A stretch of 59,912 nt of DNA from an uncultured Polyangiaceae bacterium (lineage in GTDB: Bacteria; Myxococcota_A; Polyangia; Palsa-1104), in the NCBI GenBank assembly GCA_964585665.1, contig CAZPEY010000002.1:1-59912 (forward strand). The letters are read 5' to 3'. Below the pieces are notes generated by a model. That model ran no database searches, was not told the DNA's origin, and saw only the letters and a list, made by a program, of their open reading frames with translations. This document shows positions 758-54,454 of this stretch, in pieces. Positions within the stretch are counted from its first letter, which is position 1; each line of letters starts with the position of its first letter. The translations under genes were made by a program, and so were the position numbers.

Positions 758-3394
<2,637 letters not shown>

Positions 3395-3456
3395 GGCGCT
3401 GCTTTTACCTGGAATCGGGGGTTAAAAACAGCGGCATTTTCCGACGGGCGGCGGGT

Positions 3457-3650
3457 CGGACCGGAGGTAAATCCCTGCGGGTCCGGGGGGACGGACCGGA
3501 GGTAAATCCCTGCGGGTCCGGGGGGACGGACCCGGGGGGACGGACCGGAGGTAAATCCCTGCGGGTCCGGGGGGACGGACCGGAGGTAAATCCCTGCGGG
3601 TCGGACCGGAGTTAGGTCCCGGCGGGTCAGGCGGGTCGGACCATAGGTAG
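3457..3650. repeat. Tandem array of a 35-bp REP-like imperfect-palindrome unit (CGGACCGGAGGTAAATCCCTGCGGGTCCGGGGGGA)
   Basis: Identical full copies lie at 3457-3491, 3492-3526 and 3541-3575. A 14-nt partial unit is at 3527-3540 and a truncated copy at 3576-3601. Degenerate copies are at 3602-3636 and 3637-~3650. Units abut with no spacers. Each unit has CGGACC...GGTCCG arms. Confidence 0.95.
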
Positions 3651-3703
3651 ATCGTACACAACAAACCCGCTCGCGCGCCGATAACGGCCCGGAATCGGTG
3701 AGA

Positions 3704-4180
3704 CTACCTACGGTCGTGGGCGCCGGGGGCGGGGGAAACGCGCATTACCGATAGGGCACCGAGAGTTTCCCGCGGCGAAGGCTCGAAATAGAGCCGCACG
3801 TCGTTGTCGAGTTTCAGCACGGACACGTTCCCCTGGAGGCGCTCGCGGACGAATGGTAAGCCCTCCGCCTCGAGCAGGCGCTCTACCTCCTCGATGCGGG
3901 AGTTGTCACGCAACTTCCATGGCCCGAGGGGAACTCGAGGGTGCCGTGCCATTCCACCAAAGTGCTCGCAGTGCAAGAGGAACACGCGATGGTCTTGAAA
4001 GTGCAACTCGACCACGCCGTACTTCCAGATTGCCGCGCTGGAGACATCCGATTCGATCCCCCACTGGTCCGGCTCCCCGAGCCGTTCCCTCACGAATGAG
4101 CGCGGAGCCTGGAGTCCCACCCCTACGATCTTTCCGGTTCGGAGCAGCTCAAGGTACGTCGTCGGCTCAGCTATCGCCAT
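3704..4180 (-). CDS. Hypothetical protein (158 aa), no recognisable catalytic motif. Possibly an immunity-protein-like small globular protein
   Basis: The ORF has a balanced amino-acid composition (W, K, F, H present), unlike GC-artefact frames. A GGAGAA SD lies 7 nt upstream of the ATG at 4180. It is divergent from the transposase gene. Confidence 0.6.
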   Translation of the reverse strand: MAIAEPTTYLELLRTGKIVGVGLQAPRSFVRERLGEPDQWGIESDVSSAAIWKYGVVELHFQDHRVFLLHCEHFGGMARHPRVPLGPWKLRDNSRIEEVERLLEAEGLPFVRERLQGNVSVLKLDNDVRLYFEPSPRETLGALSVMRVSPAPGAHDRR

Positions 4181-4283
4181 CTGCGTCTTCTCCAGTCAAA
4201 TCCGATTGCGATCCCGGCGCGGCGATCCGACCAGAGGCAAACAGGCACGCAACGAAACGTCGGCCGCGCCGATAACGCCGGCC

Positions 4284-5168
4284 ATGAGTAAGCCAAGGCC
4301 CGTGTATCCTGGATCAACGTACCTCATCACTCGACGGGTGAGCCAACGCATGTACTTGCTGCGGCCTTCCCGTCTCGTCGACCACATCGTGCAGTACGCC
4401 ATCGCCGTTGCGGCCAAGAAGTACGGTGTCGTGCTGCACGCCATTACGGTGATGTCGAACCACTACCATATGGTTGTCACCGACCCGCACGGGCGGCTGC
4501 CGGACTTCGAGCGTTGGTGCAACTCGATTATTGCGCGCGCGCTGAACGCGCATCACGGACGGTGGGAGAACTTCTGGGCCCCCGAGCAACCGAGCAACGT
4601 GCGACTCGTTGGCGTCGAGGACGTGCTGGGCAAGACGGTGTACACGGTCTGCAATCCGGTGGCGGCGGGGCTGGTGAGCCACGGCGCGAAGTGGCCTGGG
4701 ATTCGCCTCTTCTCGCCGGGTGTACGGAAGGTGGCACGTCCGCAGGCGTTCTTCGTTGAGGAGGGGGGACTGCCGGAAGTCGTTGCGCTCGAGTTGGTCG
4801 CGCCGCCGCTGGGGGTGAGTTCGCACGATGCGTATCGGTTGGTGCGCGAAGGCGTCGAGGGGAAGGAAGCCGAGATTCGTGCGGCGTTTCGGCGCGAGGG
4901 GCGGTCGTTTCTTGGCGCTGCGCGGGTGATGGCGCAGAAGGTGACGGACGCGCCGGCGACCATCGAGCCGCGGCGGGAAGTCTCGCCCCGCGTGGCGTGT
5001 CGCAACACGTGGCACCGCGTCGAGGTGTTGCGGCGATGCAAGGAGTTCCTTGCGGAGTATCGCGCCGCGTTCAACGCGTGGAAGCGGCGAGCAAGAGATG
5101 TGTTGTTTCCATATGGGACGTTCTTGATGTCGCAAAGGTTCGGTGCGCTGGTCGCGGCGCCGAGCTGA
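4284..5168 (+). CDS. IS200/IS605-like HUH Y1 transposase, REP-associated tyrosine transposase (RAYT)-like
   Basis: HUH motif in VMSNHYHMVV. Catalytic-Tyr motif YTVCNPVAAGLV (the Y-x2-NPV-x-AGLV pattern of PF01797-type proteins). The ATG at 4284 (MSKPRPVYPGSTYLITRR) is preferred over the track start at 4206. REP-like repeats flank the gene. Confidence 0.8.
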   Translation: MSKPRPVYPGSTYLITRRVSQRMYLLRPSRLVDHIVQYAIAVAAKKYGVVLHAITVMSNHYHMVVTDPHGRLPDFERWCNSIIARALNAHHGRWENFWAPEQPSNVRLVGVEDVLGKTVYTVCNPVAAGLVSHGAKWPGIRLFSPGVRKVARPQAFFVEEGGLPEVVALELVAPPLGVSSHDAYRLVREGVEGKEAEIRAAFRREGRSFLGAARVMAQKVTDAPATIEPRREVSPRVACRNTWHRVEVLRRCKEFLAEYRAAFNAWKRRARDVLFPYGTFLMSQRFGALVAAPS

Positions 5169-5330
5169 CCCGCGCTCAGAGTTGTTTGGCGTTTCGGGCC
5201 ATCGTCGGTCCTCGCCGCGCGTTGGCCTCTCGTCGAAATCGAGCCGCTTCTGTCCGGACACCGGACACGGTCAACCTCTGTGCCAGCTCGCAGCGTTCAA
5301 TCCGCCACGTTGCGGCTCCGATTCTATCCG

Positions 5331-5384
5331 CTACCTCCGGTCTGGTGCCGGGGGTGGCTACCTCCGGTCTGGTGCCGGGGGTGC
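5331..5384. repeat. Two tandem 27-bp repeats (CTACCTCCGGTCTGGTGCCGGGGGTGG/C), inverted relative to the 3457-3650 array core
   Basis: Copies at 5331-5357 and 5358-5384 differ only at the last base. CTACCTCCGGTC is the reverse complement of GACCGGAGGTAG. They sit between the transposase stop (5168) and the stop of the convergent kinase gene (5401). Confidence 0.9.
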
Positions 5385-5400
5385 CGGGGCGGGGTGCGCG

Positions 5401-7527
5401 CTACTCGAACCCCCCACCGATGAACTCCCGCAGCAGCGACGTCGGCGGCACATGATCCGGATAGATCGTCACGAAGTGATCGAGCAGCGCGAGCAGCCGG
5501 AACGCCGTCGCAAACGACGGGTGATCGTGCGGCACCTCGAGCAAGTACCGCTGCGCATACACCTTGAGCACCGATAGCTCGTAGATGAGCGAGGTGTCGA
5601 ACACCGCCTGCGCGCGATCCTGGTACGGGAAGATGTGCCGGCGCTCGCCGTCGCGCACCGACGGCCACCGCGCGATGTTCTGCGCGGCGTCGAGGTTGCG
5701 CGTGTGGCGATCGCGGACGATGCGACGGAGCAGCCGCACGTCGGAGGCGTGGACGCGGGTCAGCCGATCGAACGGGAGCTGGGCGAGCGGACAGATGAAG
5801 ATGGAGAACACCTTGCCGTTCGGCACCAACTCCAACAGCCGGGGATTGAGACCGTGGATCCCCTCGAGCATCAAGACGTCGCGCGGGCCGAGCTGCACGG
5901 TGCGACCGCCGTCGGGGAGGCTCTTTCCCGTCTTGAAGTCGTAGCGCGCCAGCGTGACCTTCTGTCCGTCGAGCAGGCGGTTGAGCTGGTCCTTGAGCAG
6001 CGCGGTGTCGAGCGCATCGAACGACTCGAAGTCGAGCTCGCCCTTGGCGTCGCGCGGCGTCTTCTCGCGGTCGACGTAGAAGTCGTCGAGCGACACCTCG
6101 ATCGGGTGCGCGCCGTTGACCTGGAGCTGGACGCGCAGGCGCTTGAGGAACGTCGTCTTCCCCGACGAGGACGGCCCCGCGACCGAGACGATCTGCGCGG
6201 TCTCGGCACAGCGCGAGATCTCGTCGGCGATCGCCGAGATGCGCTTCTCGTGGAAGCCCTCGGAGACGCGGATCAGCTCCGCGACGCTGGTCCCAAGGCA
6301 GGCCTGGTTGAAGTCGCCGACGCTGTTGATCCCGAGTCCGTGCAACCAGCGCTCCTGATGGCCGGTCATGTCGGCAGCCTGGCGAGACACCGCGCGCGCC
6401 TGGATGATCGCCGAGTGGGTCGAGATCTCGTTGCTGCGGATGCTGCTCGGGTAGAGCAGCAACAGCTTCTCGCCGTTGGCGACGAGACGGAAGCCGCGCA
6501 GCGCGCGCGTGCTCGACAGGGGCTCGAGGTGCAGCACGTGGACTCGGCCGTACGTCGCGAGCGGCACCATCGGCTCGCGCCAGGTCGCGAGCAGCGCCAC
6601 TGCGTCGCTCCAGCCGCGCTCGCGGAAGTGCTCGATCGCCTCGCCGCGGGTCCACCACTCATCCTGCACGACGAGGTTCTGATCGAGCAGGCGGTTCATC
6701 TCGGCCTGGATGCGATCGGCGAGCTCGTGGAGGTCGAGCGGCGCCTTGGCGACGACGTCGACGCGCTGGCCGAAGCCAAGGCTGTGGCCGAGGTGCAGGC
6801 TGACCTCGGCCGCGATCCGATCGGCGGCCTCGAGCAGCAAGAGCGCCAGGCTCTGGCGCACGATGCGCTCGCCCTCGGAGCTGTTGGCGACGATGGGCTC
6901 GAGCGTGCACGACGAGGTCAGCGCGTGCGACAGCGGCACCGCCTTCTTGTCGACCAGCGCCGCGACGACCTGTACGCCGTCGATGACGTCGTCGAGCAGA
7001 TCGTCTGCGACCGTGCCCGTCGGCACGTCGCGCTCGCCAGCGGGGGTGCGGACCTTGAGGCGCGTGCGGCGAGGCAGCGAGCGCTCGCGCAGGAGCGCTC
7101 CGACGCTGTCGGTCATCTCCTTCAGGCTGCCGCCAACGCTGCCGACGATCGCCTGGACGAGGCGCAGGGTCGCCCGCGGGTGCTGCGCGGCCATCTCGAC
7201 GTAGCTCGCCTCGGAGAGCTTGGCGAGGCGGAGGTCGGTCACCGCGGTGATCGTCGCGCCGCGCGGCTGCCCGGCGAGGAGCGCCAGCTCGCCGAAGTGT
7301 CGACCGGGCGAGAGCTGCTCGACCTCGATGCCGCCGCGAGTGACGCTGGCCTGGCCGTCGAGCACGAAGTACATGGCGCGATCGCGCGCCCCCTGGTGGA
7401 TGAGCTCGGTGCCGGCGGGGACGTTCACCTCTTCGACGCGCGCGCGGAGCTGTTCGCGGTCGGCGTCGGAGAGCGACGCGAGGAGCGGGCAGTCTTGCAG
7501 GTGGGCGCAGCTCACGGGGACCATCAC
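5401..7527 (-). CDS. Cyclic-nucleotide-binding domain fused to a long uridine kinase/phosphoribulokinase-family nucleoside kinase
   Basis: The N-terminal CAP_ED-like region reads FVLDGQASV...GRHFGELALLAGQPRGATITAVTDLRLAKL. The C-terminal P-loop VSVAGPSSSGKTTFLKRL and the following PRK/Udk-like region (LEGIHGLNP, RRIVRDRHTR) are present. The central region resembles the TGS/ThrRS-SAD-like module of long uridine kinases. Confidence 0.75.
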   Translation of the reverse strand: MMVPVSCAHLQDCPLLASLSDADREQLRARVEEVNVPAGTELIHQGARDRAMYFVLDGQASVTRGGIEVEQLSPGRHFGELALLAGQPRGATITAVTDLRLAKLSEASYVEMAAQHPRATLRLVQAIVGSVGGSLKEMTDSVGALLRERSLPRRTRLKVRTPAGERDVPTGTVADDLLDDVIDGVQVVAALVDKKAVPLSHALTSSCTLEPIVANSSEGERIVRQSLALLLLEAADRIAAEVSLHLGHSLGFGQRVDVVAKAPLDLHELADRIQAEMNRLLDQNLVVQDEWWTRGEAIEHFRERGWSDAVALLATWREPMVPLATYGRVHVLHLEPLSSTRALRGFRLVANGEKLLLLYPSSIRSNEISTHSAIIQARAVSRQAADMTGHQERWLHGLGINSVGDFNQACLGTSVAELIRVSEGFHEKRISAIADEISRCAETAQIVSVAGPSSSGKTTFLKRLRVQLQVNGAHPIEVSLDDFYVDREKTPRDAKGELDFESFDALDTALLKDQLNRLLDGQKVTLARYDFKTGKSLPDGGRTVQLGPRDVLMLEGIHGLNPRLLELVPNGKVFSIFICPLAQLPFDRLTRVHASDVRLLRRIVRDRHTRNLDAAQNIARWPSVRDGERRHIFPYQDRAQAVFDTSLIYELSVLKVYAQRYLLEVPHDHPSFATAFRLLALLDHFVTIYPDHVPPTSLLREFIGGGFE

Positions 7528-37900: not shown

Positions 37901-38060
37901 GCGGCGACGCATCGGCACACCGGTGCCGCGCTGCGAGCGGGCGCGCATCGAGGAGCTTCGCGCCAACTGCCGCCACGCGCTCGGCGATCACTTCGCGCTC
38001 TTGCACGAATCCGGTGCTGCGATGCCGCTCGACGCGGCGTTTCGCTTCGCGCTCGCCTGA
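34968..38060 (+). CDS. Ser/Thr protein kinase fused to a STAND/AAA ATPase and TPR repeats
   Basis: Kinase motifs GRGGVGIVYEA, ALK, HRDLKPANLF, DFGL, GTPDFMAPE. P-loop LLGVGGTGKTRLA with Walker B VVLDNVEH. The C-terminal half is TPR-like. GTG 34968 follows GGAGGGAG and avoids overlap with argH. Confidence 0.85.
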   Translation: MLALAVGEELDARYRIVRELGRGGVGIVYEAERVADGLRCALKIAHGESDLAVQRGRLQLEAEIGRQLAGEHVVAIYDHGASAARPDLYYVAMELLHGVDLGVLVEQQGPLPADRVQLVLGQLGDVLGRAHALGIVHRDLKPANLFWHQPEDGPATLKVLDFGLVKQLEQSLGGATRLTATGAIVGTPDFMAPEQAAQSHLVGPHTDIWAVGMVAIYLLTGERYWRAGTLVHILTQLNAGPTYAPSSRWPHLSTAFDEWFWRSCDRVGSRRYASVAAQLSALARVLPTLRPAERPLSLGALTEDHTVSIYPAQLRALPRPRAALLGRTEELRQLHVLLLTRGQRLVTLLGVGGTGKTRLAIEAAAEVAPLIKDGVYFVELAGVRQDDALPGALQTGLGVVVEPGESAIAAVERFLQPLSCLVVLDNVEHLSSLPTVMARLIEVAPTVQWLVTSRQPLGLSIEARIEVAPLPVPTAGRDVGEAQLRAYASALLFEQRAAEASPGWELRDEDAAAIAEILRRLDGLPLAIELAAARVRLFSPSELRERLSRRLGLLTGGRSATSERHATMRAAIDWSYDLLTADEQRAFRALSFFPGGANVQTLAEVLDADPAAIADVVEAVADQSLCRINGDRRIGQLEVVREYGRERASTAEAEGLTAALLRVFVGLAERAEPELRGPHQLLWLERFDREQDNLRAVLEHAIARGDGEVALLLSTTLSWYWYLRGQYAEGRRWLEQAIEVGAARPMALQRARRSLGELAYLQCDYETARQHLDASEDLARRHGDLAAAADATQALGSIARERGDYEQSLLLHRRALAVYETALDPLKAARAHNYLAFAAWLSGDLDEARRYALRAEAEFAQLADEEGAIWALLNLGAVDYWQGALEEARTRVNAAHQRSRTAGFKEGVAWTLNVLGWIALDELQRDEAKETLQESLAVHRELGDLWRSSSVLEALAALASSCADSRRCAKLLGVASALRRRIGTPVPRCERARIEELRANCRHALGDHFALLHESGAAMPLDAAFRFALA

Positions 38061-38075
38061 GCTGGGCCGACGTCG

Positions 38076-39071
38076 CTACTCGGCGAAGCGCTTGTGGACG
38101 TAGTCGCACGCCGTGCGGTAGTCGGCCAGCGACGCGGTGACCGAGCTGACGAAGGCGCGCCCGAACTCGGTGACGCGGGTGTCGTGATCGCGGATGTCGA
38201 ACCCACGCGGCAGCTCGTACTCGGCGAACACGAGCTGTCGACGGCCCTTGCGATCCCGCTCGATCGCGGGAGCGTCGACGGAAGAGAGGCGAAACAGGCG
38301 GCTCGCGACCGAGGTGCGGCGCTCCTCGGAGCTGCCCGTCGGCGTCGAGGCCAGGTGGCTGGTCAGGTGGTACGTGAAGATCGCCTGCTCCCGCGCAAAG
38401 TGGCGGAGCGTCAGCTTGGCGAGGCGCGCGAAGCGCGTCTCCTCGTCGGTCACCTGCAGACCCTCGACGAGCTCGCCGAGGATCGTGCGGCTCTCTTCGT
38501 CGAACGTGATCGGCAGCGGCCCATGGACGAGCAGGTTGACCAGCTCGTGTTCGCCGCGGCGGGCGTGATCGAGAGCGCGCAGCGCATAGAGCACGGTCGG
38601 GACGCTGTCGGCGAAGATGCCTCGGTTGGTGCGGCGCAAGAGGTCCTCGCTGTTGTCGGACAGGCGCACGAGCGCGTCGGTGCCGAGCTTGCCGAGCGCA
38701 TCGCCGAGCATCGCCCAGCCGCGGTTCTTCTTCATCCCTTCGATGACCTGGCAGATGCCGAGCACGGCGACGACGGGCCACGGGTAGAGGAGCTGACAGC
38801 GCCGCCCGAGCGCCAGGTAGCCGGCGACGCGGCGATGGACGTTGTGGTTGTGGCGCTTGAGGAAGTCGTGCGCCTCGCGGCGGAAGGCGTTGTGCGCCGC
38901 CACCAAGAACTCGCGCTGGGCCGGACCGAGCTTGCCCGTCGCGCTGCGATACTCCTCGAGCGCGGCGCCGAGCTCCTCGGGGCCGACGAGCTGAAGGTCG
39001 TCCCACCAGAGCACGAAGCTCTGCGCGGCGGGGTTGCGCAGGGGACCACGGAGAGAGTCGATGAGCGCCAT
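38076..39071 (-). CDS. Hypothetical protein (331 aa)
   Basis: Normal amino-acid composition and a clean ORF. I recognised no motif. Confidence 0.55.
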   Translation of the reverse strand: MALIDSLRGPLRNPAAQSFVLWWDDLQLVGPEELGAALEEYRSATGKLGPAQREFLVAAHNAFRREAHDFLKRHNHNVHRRVAGYLALGRRCQLLYPWPVVAVLGICQVIEGMKKNRGWAMLGDALGKLGTDALVRLSDNSEDLLRRTNRGIFADSVPTVLYALRALDHARRGEHELVNLLVHGPLPITFDEESRTILGELVEGLQVTDEETRFARLAKLTLRHFAREQAIFTYHLTSHLASTPTGSSEERRTSVASRLFRLSSVDAPAIERDRKGRRQLVFAEYELPRGFDIRDHDTRVTEFGRAFVSSVTASLADYRTACDYVHKRFAE

Positions 39072-53357: not shown

Positions 53358-54454
53358 TCGACTGGCTGCGCCGCCTCGGTTCTGCGCTCGTCGCGCCGCG
53401 CTGGCTTGCAGTCAAGCTGCTTGACCAAAAGCCCGGGCGCGCGACCGCGGATGTGCTGGCGCTGCTGCTGCTGATCGTCGTCCTCGCCGAGCCGCCACGC
53501 CTGGTCCGCGCCTATTACGCCGGTCGCGCGCTCGGCTGGGAGATCGGGGCGCAGTCGGCGCTGCAGGCGCTCAACGCGGTGGTGTTCATCCTGCTGGCGA
53601 TGATGGCGGCTGGGATCGTGCTGTCGTTTCTTCTCGGACGGGGCGAAGATCCCAAGCTGCGGCCCCGGATGTCCGATCGGGGGCTCGATCTGGCGGCCTA
53701 CGCGACGGTGCCATACCTCCTCGTCAAGGTCTGCAAGTCGCTCCTGGGAGCGTTCCTCGAGGCCGAGCTGGACGGCTGGAAGATGCGCGTCGCTTGGCTC
53801 TCCATCGGGGTCGGCTGGACCGTGCTCGCCGCTGGTCTCGGCTATCGCGCCTTGCGCGCGGCCCAGCGGACCAACCAAGACCAAGCTGTGCCGCCGCCGC
53901 CAGCGCCTCGGCCCCGCACGACGCTGGTGCTTGGCGCTGCGCTCGTCTGGACGGTCCTGCTCTCCGGCGCGCGCCCACTCACGTACACGCTCAACAACCT
54001 CGAGACCCTGAGCCGGGTCGCCATCGAGCGCGGCAAGCCGGCACCTGGGTGGACGCTGCCAGCGTCCGACGGCAGGGACGTCTCCCTGGATGGACAGCGC
54101 GGCCGAACCGTGGTGCTCGCGTTCTGGGCGATGTGGTGCGGCGTGTGCAAGCAGGAGCTGCCACTGCTCGACAAGCTGGCGCGCTCGCTCGACGGCAAGC
54201 AGGCGGCGCTCTACACCGTCAACACCGATGGACAGGACGCCGACACACGCGCCGCGGTGCGGGCCTACTTCGCCGAGCGCGGCCTCTCGCTACCGGTGCT
54301 CTTCGACAACGGCAGCGTCGCCGGTCTCTACAACGTGACGGCGATCCCGAACCTCGTCGTGATCTCGCCCACCGGCAACGTCACCAAGACCTTCCTCGGC
54401 ATCACCACGCCGGCGACGATCGAGGCGGCGATCCGCGACGCGGCGTCCCGCTGA
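53354..54454 (+). CDS. Membrane protein with Yip1-like N-terminal multi-TM region and C-terminal TlpA/ResA-like thioredoxin domain
   Basis: The ATG at 53354 overlaps the upstream stop as ATGA. TM helices are present in the first ~230 aa. Redoxin motif VVLAFWAMWCGVCKQELPLL. Confidence 0.7.
   Translation: MIDWLRRLGSALVAPRWLAVKLLDQKPGRATADVLALLLLIVVLAEPPRLVRAYYAGRALGWEIGAQSALQALNAVVFILLAMMAAGIVLSFLLGRGEDPKLRPRMSDRGLDLAAYATVPYLLVKVCKSLLGAFLEAELDGWKMRVAWLSIGVGWTVLAAGLGYRALRAAQRTNQDQAVPPPPAPRPRTTLVLGAALVWTVLLSGARPLTYTLNNLETLSRVAIERGKPAPGWTLPASDGRDVSLDGQRGRTVVLAFWAMWCGVCKQELPLLDKLARSLDGKQAALYTVNTDGQDADTRAAVRAYFAERGLSLPVLFDNGSVAGLYNVTAIPNLVVISPTGNVTKTFLGITTPATIEAAIRDAASR

Follow-up and report, generated by a model that had tools for sequence, protein, structure and literature searches.

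A probable TIRtron-type element with a RAYT-like Y1 transposase gene and inverted end arrays beside gyrA in an uncultured Polyangiaceae bacterium

TIRtrons, or TIRYTs, are a little-studied kind of mobile DNA in which a gene for a RAYT-like Y1 tyrosine transposase lies between terminal inverted repeats (TIRs) instead of the hairpins of repetitive extragenic palindromic (REP) sequences (Di Nocera, De Gregorio & Rocco 2013, BMC Genomics 14:522; PMC3733652). They correspond largely to TnpA-Y1 subclass 2.1 (Quentin et al. 2018; PMC6006769) and to RAYT Group 1 (Bertels et al. 2017; PMC5581495), which has the highest duplication rate among true RAYTs (PMC5581495). Published TIRYTs, again largely of subclass 2.1, have helix-turn-helix (HTH) tails and mostly GGGGWSAS ends (PMC6006769). 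No biochemical study exists of RAYT-like Y1 proteins that fall outside the IS200 and REP paradigms, and what they do biologically is an open question (PMC6006769). Here we describe a locus beside gyrA in a 59,912-nt stretch of DNA (the window) from an uncultured Polyangiaceae bacterium (assembly GCA_964585665.1, contig CAZPEY010000002.1). We take it, with a probability of roughly 0.72, to be a TIRtron-type, insertion sequence (IS)-like element: one RAYT-like Y1 gene bounded by short TIRs, subterminal conserved segments, and hairpins. A sequence-only reading of the same locus had seen in it a REPtron, that is, a RAYT with its cognate REPs.

The gene at 4284 to 5168 encodes a 294-amino-acid (aa) protein that carries SNHYHMVV and YTVCNPVAAGLV. 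The HUH and catalytic tyrosine motifs attributed to it earlier were upheld, since H60, H62 (NHYH), and Y120 are invariant in an alignment of 24 family members, as are W98, N124, and P125. The pattern Y---NP is the signature of class 2 (RAYT-like) TnpA-Y1 proteins (PMC6006769). The family-profile check proposed with the sequence-only reading gave 22.1 bits for Pfam Y1_Tnp, just below the cut-off of 23 bits, 48.8 bits for NCBIfam REP_Tyr_transpos (NF047646; aa 5 to 138), under its 80-bit cut-off, and only 15.6 bits for transpos_IS200 (NF033573). The core aligns end to end with the 146-position RAYT model, with no large insertions. Escherichia coli TnpA-REP (4ER8) ranked first in a sequence profile search of the Protein Data Bank (PDB) (E value of 5e-5), and the same entry, in which TnpA-REP is bound to a REP hairpin, was the best fold match (E value of 2e-7, template modeling [TM] score of 0.72, root mean square deviation of 2.0) to an AlphaFold (AF2) model with a predicted local distance difference test (pLDDT) score of 88; the IS608 and ISDra2 transposases were the next fold matches. 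The protein is thus a predicted class 2 (RAYT-like) Y1 HUH enzyme and not an IS200-like one.

Residues ~141 to 294 form a second conserved, family-specific domain with the motifs GRSFLG, EPRRxLSPRVA, and FPxGTY. It had no Pfam match in any of the 24 members, Y1_Tnp alone being found at an E value of ≤0.1, and when folded by itself (pLDDT of 81, predicted TM score of 0.41) it had no fold match in the PDB. Searching with a profile of this domain gave 2,900 clusters at 50% identity; among the 150 matches listed, the full-length (~300-aa) proteins carry the domain behind an N-terminal stretch of ~145 residues. Public labels for homologs of ~298 aa read "REP element-mobilizing transposase RayT" or "putative transposase"; the former is misleading on these proteins because there are no REPs there to mobilise.

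The gene, its subterminal segments, and the arrays on its two sides are laid out as follows (window coordinates).

3449 to 3655, plus strand: left-end (LE) tandem array with a 35-nt period; six cores GGACCGGAGGTAAAT at 3458, 3493, 3542, 3577, 3603, and 3638
4229 to 4242, plus strand: degenerate LE core GACCAGAGGCAAAC of the full element, 55 nt before the ATG
4246 to 4283, plus strand: conserved leader CACGCAAC...GCCGATAACGCCGGCC, common to the paralogs on contigs C75, C248, and C99 and to the metagenomic relative L110
4284 to 5168, plus strand: Y1 HUH tyrosine transposase-like gene, 294 aa; N-terminal RAYT-like domain at aa 5 to 138, C-terminal domain at aa ~141 to 294
5169 to 5288, plus strand: conserved 3′ subterminal region with ~80% DNA identity to the paralogs; hairpin GTCCGGACACCGGAC at 5252 to 5266
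5330 to 5389, plus strand: right-end (RE) array of two perfect 27-nt units GCTACCTCCGGTCTGGTGCCGGGGGTG (5330 to 5383) and a partial third GGTGCCGGGG

Both 27-nt RE units (5330 to 5383) carry the reverse complement of the left core, as had been noticed from the letters alone, and the small hairpin GTCCGG-ACA-CCGGAC reported just 3′ of the gene is present at 5252 to 5266; its GTCCG/CGGAC stem is retained in all paralogs, with variable loops. The RE unit forms a 9-bp hairpin on the plus strand when its folding is compared with that of shuffled sequence (z = -3.3). The LE array has the 35-nt tandem period claimed for it, but its unit, folded alone, contains no significant palindrome (z = -0.3 versus shuffled sequence). 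The outer LE units are near-identical and the innermost copy is the most diverged; the array also holds one truncated 14-nt unit (3519 to 3532).

We took a census of these repeats in the source assembly, a metagenome-assembled genome (MAG) of 708 contigs, 6.1 Mb, and 68.8% G+C in which the window is contig C2 and from which ~9% of the genome is absent. These 2 kb contain 6 copies of the 11-mer GACCGGAGGTA, and the remaining 6.1 Mb contain only 4, a number close to random expectation by our own estimate; this enrichment excludes chance. All 17 genome matches to GACCGGRGGTAA lie at loci of this gene family (contigs C75, C2, C99, and C248). The REPtron reading had counted on flanking repeats that recur elsewhere in the genome, and the census found them nowhere else and detected no dispersed REP; this is therefore not a classical REP system. 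It had also expected a single-copy RAYT. The genome holds four intact copies (C2, C75, C248, and C15) and a fragment at the end of contig C99, the three other intact proteins being 84%, 81%, and 55% identical to the window copy (55% for C15). No Y1 gene outside this family was found in the genome. Thus, the RAYT-like protein and the inversely oriented repeats of that reading were retained, and the repeats co-vary with the gene, but with repeats that are not dispersed REPs and a gene that is not single copy, it fails two defining tests.

The four intact copies and the C99 fragment share one layout. An upstream tandem array with the core GACCGG(A/G)GGTAA (GACCGGAAGCAAAT in C15) is followed by the conserved leader CACGCAAC...GCCGATAACGC..ATG and the gene, then by a conserved segment of ~120 nt with the hairpin GTCCG...CGGAC, and finally by the reverse-complemented core, which is often doubled. 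The innermost core of the C75 and C248 paralogs stands at the same distance from the ATG (55 nt) as in the window. In C15 the left end reads GACCGGAAGC and the right end reads GCTTCCGGTC; since both are altered, the two ends have changed together. The 73%-identical relative L110 has GCCCGGAGG at both ends. Insertion contexts differ among the paralogs, whose synonymous divergence (dS) is 0.6 to 1.9, with a ratio of nonsynonymous to synonymous divergence (dN/dS) of 0.13 to 0.30. These paralogs are old, diverged, and under purifying selection, and the copies in this genome are therefore probably sedentary now.

Two other places in the assembly bear on the paralogs. Contig C596 (reverse strand, 121 to 154) bears a remnant of a solo right end that matches window positions 5312 to 5345 at 85% identity over 34 nt. 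This remnant includes ~20 nt of element-internal sequence, has neither gene nor left end, and is probably what is left of a copy since lost. On C15 (~13650 to 13760; 1180 to 1278 upstream), the left array of the 55% paralog is broken by a run of N, and since both sides of the run repeat CTGCTTCTGACCGGAAGCAAATGGGCCGCAACCGGCGGAACAATGCCCCGATA, the assembled array is probably shorter than the real one.

A scan of representative genomes yielded 191 loci of the wider family, mostly in Anaeromyxobacter or other Anaeromyxobacteraceae, with others in Polyangia, Kofleriaceae, and some Planctomycetota; none was found in the 40 nearest relatives of the genome studied here. The left core lies at a nearly fixed distance, 113 to 126 nt before the ATG (examples are GACCGAGAG, GACCCAGAG, GACCGAGGG, and GTCCGAGGTT), and its reverse complement lies ~200 to 260 nt past the stop codon. 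The family-wide core is GACCNRRG, which appears as GACCGGAGGTA in the window and as GACC[GC]AGAG or similar in relatives. At 52 loci, left and right cores of the same locus matched at 10.6 of 16 positions, shuffled pairs matched at 9.16 ± 0.22, and all 5000 shuffles stayed below the observed value. Automatic picking of the "innermost" core is noisy, and this statistic is conservative. Each gene thus demonstrably co-evolves with its own ends.

Evidence of movement comes from relatives. One Anaeromyxobacteraceae genome of 4.6 Mb contains five copies that are ≥99% identical, four of them over ~1257 to 1261 bp, together with roughly eight diverged members, and a second genome contains three copies at 99% identity. 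Flanks differ among the identical copies, whose boundaries are sharp, ..GG/TCCCGACCGAGAG (also ..GG/TCCCGACCGAGAGTACC...) on one side and ...CTCGGTCGGGA/ on the other (slashes mark the boundaries), and no direct repeat of the flank adjoins their ends. In 4 of the 5 copies CYGG stands 5′ of the left end, which is a weak lead on target preference. For one Anaeromyxobacteraceae copy, the flanks are contiguous in three sister genomes (an empty site), and at the junction one gene's start codon directly adjoins the stop codon of its neighbour. In a fourth genome this place is occupied by a diverged member of the family, with arrays of ends separating the element from the old junction. Since near-identical copies have differing flanks and empty sites exist, the family behaves as an insertion sequence and, judged from these genome comparisons, is evidently mobile in the relatives.

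The locus with empty sites (L136 in genome G047 and L075 in G042, both Anaeromyxobacteraceae) has a further peculiarity. In G047 the element has the junction sequence CATCTA(C/T)C on either side, at distances of ~95 nt and ~35 nt from its ends, with the arrays between. The pair might stem from an old 8-bp duplication that growing arrays have since pulled apart, or might serve to leave both genes undamaged.

Tandem arrays are a frequent property of the ends. At 24 of the 51 loci with a detected shared end core, one or both ends carry at least two tandem cores, and the units are staggered, in that they share the outward flank and differ in their inner stop points. Apart from one additional degenerate core next to L072, which resembles a right end, the five young, near-identical copies have single ends; among the older, diverged members of the same genome, some ends occur two or three times. 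We infer that arrays build up once an element has inserted, probably as a side effect of slippage or of repeated processing of the ends. In the complete genome of A. oryzae Red232 there are three full genes, solo ends at about a dozen places, and one mini-element of ~115 bp, and these end counts are far below REP copy numbers. A broader proposal, which we offer tentatively and hold to be possible rather than probable, joins these observations: the family would be an undescribed, very large Y1 subfamily whose enzyme copies its own ends stepwise, the staggered arrays would grow outward with residence time so that their length records past enzyme activity, and such arrays may seed dispersed families like REPs or bacterial interspersed mosaic elements (BIMEs).

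By analogy with IS608 and TnpA-REP, H60 and H62 would hold a metal ion, and Tyr120 would cut and rejoin single-stranded DNA at both ends. The element would leave and enter without an adjacent target-site duplication.

Among described systems, the best fit is a TIRtron/TIRYT element of an undescribed subfamily. Shared with TIRtrons are a RAYT-like Y1 gene between TIRs instead of REP hairpins; genomes without matching REP families, in which the TIRs sometimes occur as a few solo, dimeric, or clustered copies; and several diverged genes per genome, each with its own TIRs, in a patchy and somewhat IS-like distribution. The core differs, being GACCNRRG here and GGGGWSAS in the majority (not all) of published cases. 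So does the C terminus: subclass 2.1 has an HTH there (Bac_DnaA_C, HTH_23, or HTH_28), whereas the tail of ~150 aa found here is neither HTH nor DnaA-C-like. Clear recent transposition with empty sites and staggered tandem arrays, often at both ends, also set this family apart.

The IS200/IS605 elements (IS608, ISDra2) are likewise built on Y1 HUH transposases, lack end-adjacent target-site duplications, have subterminal hairpins, and occur as multiple near-identical elements of ~1.3 kb or less, as this family does in its Anaeromyxobacteraceae relatives though not in this genome; at one locus with an empty site, extra bases blur the junction. They have no TIRs, however, both of their ends being read on the same strand; their TnpA is ~130 to 150 aa long with Y---Q, in contrast to 294 aa with Y---NP; and tnpB is often present, whereas the unit here has no second gene. 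Membership in IS200/IS605 was rejected on protein signature, protein length, and inverted ends. TnpA-Y1 subclass 2.3 (Quentin et al. 2018), made up of long (~325-aa) NHYH/WE proteins with ~4 copies per genome and no REPs, resembles our family in its NHYH and WE motifs, long C-terminal tail, several moderately diverged copies per genome, and lack of REPs. It differs in a 172-aa core with 10- and 55-aa insertions and in its hosts, Chromatiales and Alteromonadales. The supplement of PMC6006769, consulted for placement in the published subclasses, contains no myxobacterial names.

With the REPtron of E. coli TnpA-REP/RAYT (PDB 4ER8; PMC3479197), which is nearest to the N-terminal domain both among solved structures and by sequence, the locus has in common the HUH motif with a single catalytic Tyr, the Y---NP motif, and a gene between inversely oriented repeats. 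REPs are hairpins in tens to hundreds of dispersed copies, whereas the repeats here are confined to gene loci; the protein is ~130 aa longer, and its relatives are multicopy and mobile as whole elements. It is accordingly very improbable that a domesticated, single-copy RAYT maintains genome-wide cognate REPs or REPINs here, of which the two clusters flanking the gene would be part. The affinity of the N-terminal domain to TnpA-REP, the inverted flanking repeats with a hairpin as the right unit, and paralogs with private repeat variants, which recall the RAYT/REP pairs of Pseudomonas and Stenotrophomonas (PMC3733652), are what such a system would have; but 6.1 Mb contain zero core copies away from family loci, the left unit lacks a significant palindrome, relatives reach 99% identity in several copies with empty sites, and a complete A. 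oryzae genome has only about a dozen solo ends. The census has already largely refuted this explanation. A resident, domesticated Y1 enzyme, immobile in this lineage, with arrays that act as iteron-like binding or processing sites for a host role (such as local DNA structure or regulation beside gyrA), is unlikely, though it deserves more weight than a REP system. It would account for intact, old paralogs under purifying selection, for the lack of near-identical copies in this genome, for a left array that begins 55 nt upstream of the gyrA start codon, and for arrays at about half of the loci with a detected shared end core. However, purifying selection between diverged copies is also expected of horizontally spreading transposases, the family is patchy, with no member found in the 40 nearest relatives, paralog insertion contexts differ, and close family members clearly transpose. 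That the arrays were mis-assembled in a metagenome bin and the inverted cores are coincidental is scarcely credible: the MAG is indeed fragmented into 708 contigs and one paralog has a run of N in its left array, but the architecture recurs in dozens of independent assemblies, among them long-read MAGs and the complete isolate genome of A. oryzae Red232, the two cores of a locus co-vary, and the core is enriched far beyond chance.

Several points weigh against a TIRtron-type element at this locus. No two copies in this genome are near-identical. An empty site for the window insertion was not found, because the relatives are too distant; in 20 relatives, the cyclic nucleotide monophosphate (cNMP)-binding kinase gene that adjoins the right array had no gyrA-adjacent ortholog, only domain-level matches. 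The full element's own left core is degenerate (GACCAGAGGCA versus GACCGGAGGTA), and at the sole locus with an empty site there are extra bases between the old junction and the left end. The ends are inverted, not direct, for a single-strand enzyme, and the catalytic mechanism is carried over by analogy from IS608 and TnpA-REP. Lastly, the assembly is a fragmented MAG with 3% contamination in which the paralogs lie on separate contigs.

The subfamily offers unusually clean material for biochemical study. Some copies are young and near-identical, with exact boundaries and empty sites to match, others are old and have amplified ends, and the ends co-vary with the gene. These would serve as defined substrates for testing what a single-strand tyrosine nuclease does with inverted ends and whether its chemistry amplifies ends as a by-product.

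The window holds two units side by side, a gene-less mini-element (3449 to 3735) and the full element (4229 to 5389), with a small unrelated gene between them. In addition to the LE array, the left part comprises the following.

3656 to 3686, plus strand: leader remnant, 74% identical to the conserved pre-ATG leader at 4247 to 4277 (ACRCAAC...CGCGCCGATAACG)
3701 to 3735, plus strand: right-end-like unit ACTACCTACGGTCGTGGGCGCCGGGGGCGGGG, with the reverse-complemented core CTACCTACGGTC at 3703 to 3714 and a local alignment to 5346 to 5389
3704 to 4180, minus strand: orphan open reading frame of 158 aa (ORF158), no family match

The copy of CTACCTACGGTC at 3703 to 3714 had been pointed out by the sequence-only reading and is present; the unit around it closes the mini-element, which consists of array, leader copy, and right-end-like unit. 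ORF158 has no Pfam and no NCBIfam match. It was rejected as a component of the family, since its single homolog (71% identity) sits in an unrelated context without a Y1 gene, and it is a bystander or possibly a passenger. Since only the inner left core is degenerate and the outer ones are perfect, the outer LE array and the RE array might act together, and going by their sequence they could bracket ORF158 as a passenger.

The host interval runs from the start of gyrA (758 to 3394, minus strand) to the stop of a cNMP-binding, uridine kinase-like gene (5401 to 7527, minus strand), a convergent gene whose stop codon lies 12 nt beyond the end of the right array. Related loci bear Myxococcota-type names. 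The left array has its first unit only 55 nt from the start codon of gyrA (interval 3395 to 3448), so the gyrA promoter is either very near the gene or inside or beyond the repeat array. A simple sigma-70 promoter scan gave 0 sites, terminator-like matches were no higher than the shuffled background, and Rfam had no match across 3300 to 5500.

Two other repeat families were seen in this genome. A dispersed long hairpin of ~24 copies (among them C4:430-600, C12:~38000-38200, C60:~6000-6200, and copies on C130, C165, C260, C308, and C338) has the conserved centre CCTCGCGGAGTTACTTTGT.GGAGCACGATCGACCCTGCC.GTGGCACACCCGT.GTCGGGTGACGSAGCGAGG and outer stems that vary between copies yet stay complementary. 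It matched no Rfam family apart from a spurious miRNA-precursor hit, and it looks like a miniature inverted-repeat transposable element (MITE) or a REPIN, with no obvious transposase. As a cognate REPIN of the Y1 gene it was rejected for now, since it shares no sequence with the Y1 ends; the genome has no other Y1 gene. The palindrome GTCAAGC(A/T)GCTTGAC (window 53405 to 53426) recurs at ~39 other places in the genome as two 16-mer variants (20 and 19 copies) and may be a regulator binding site or part of a repeat.

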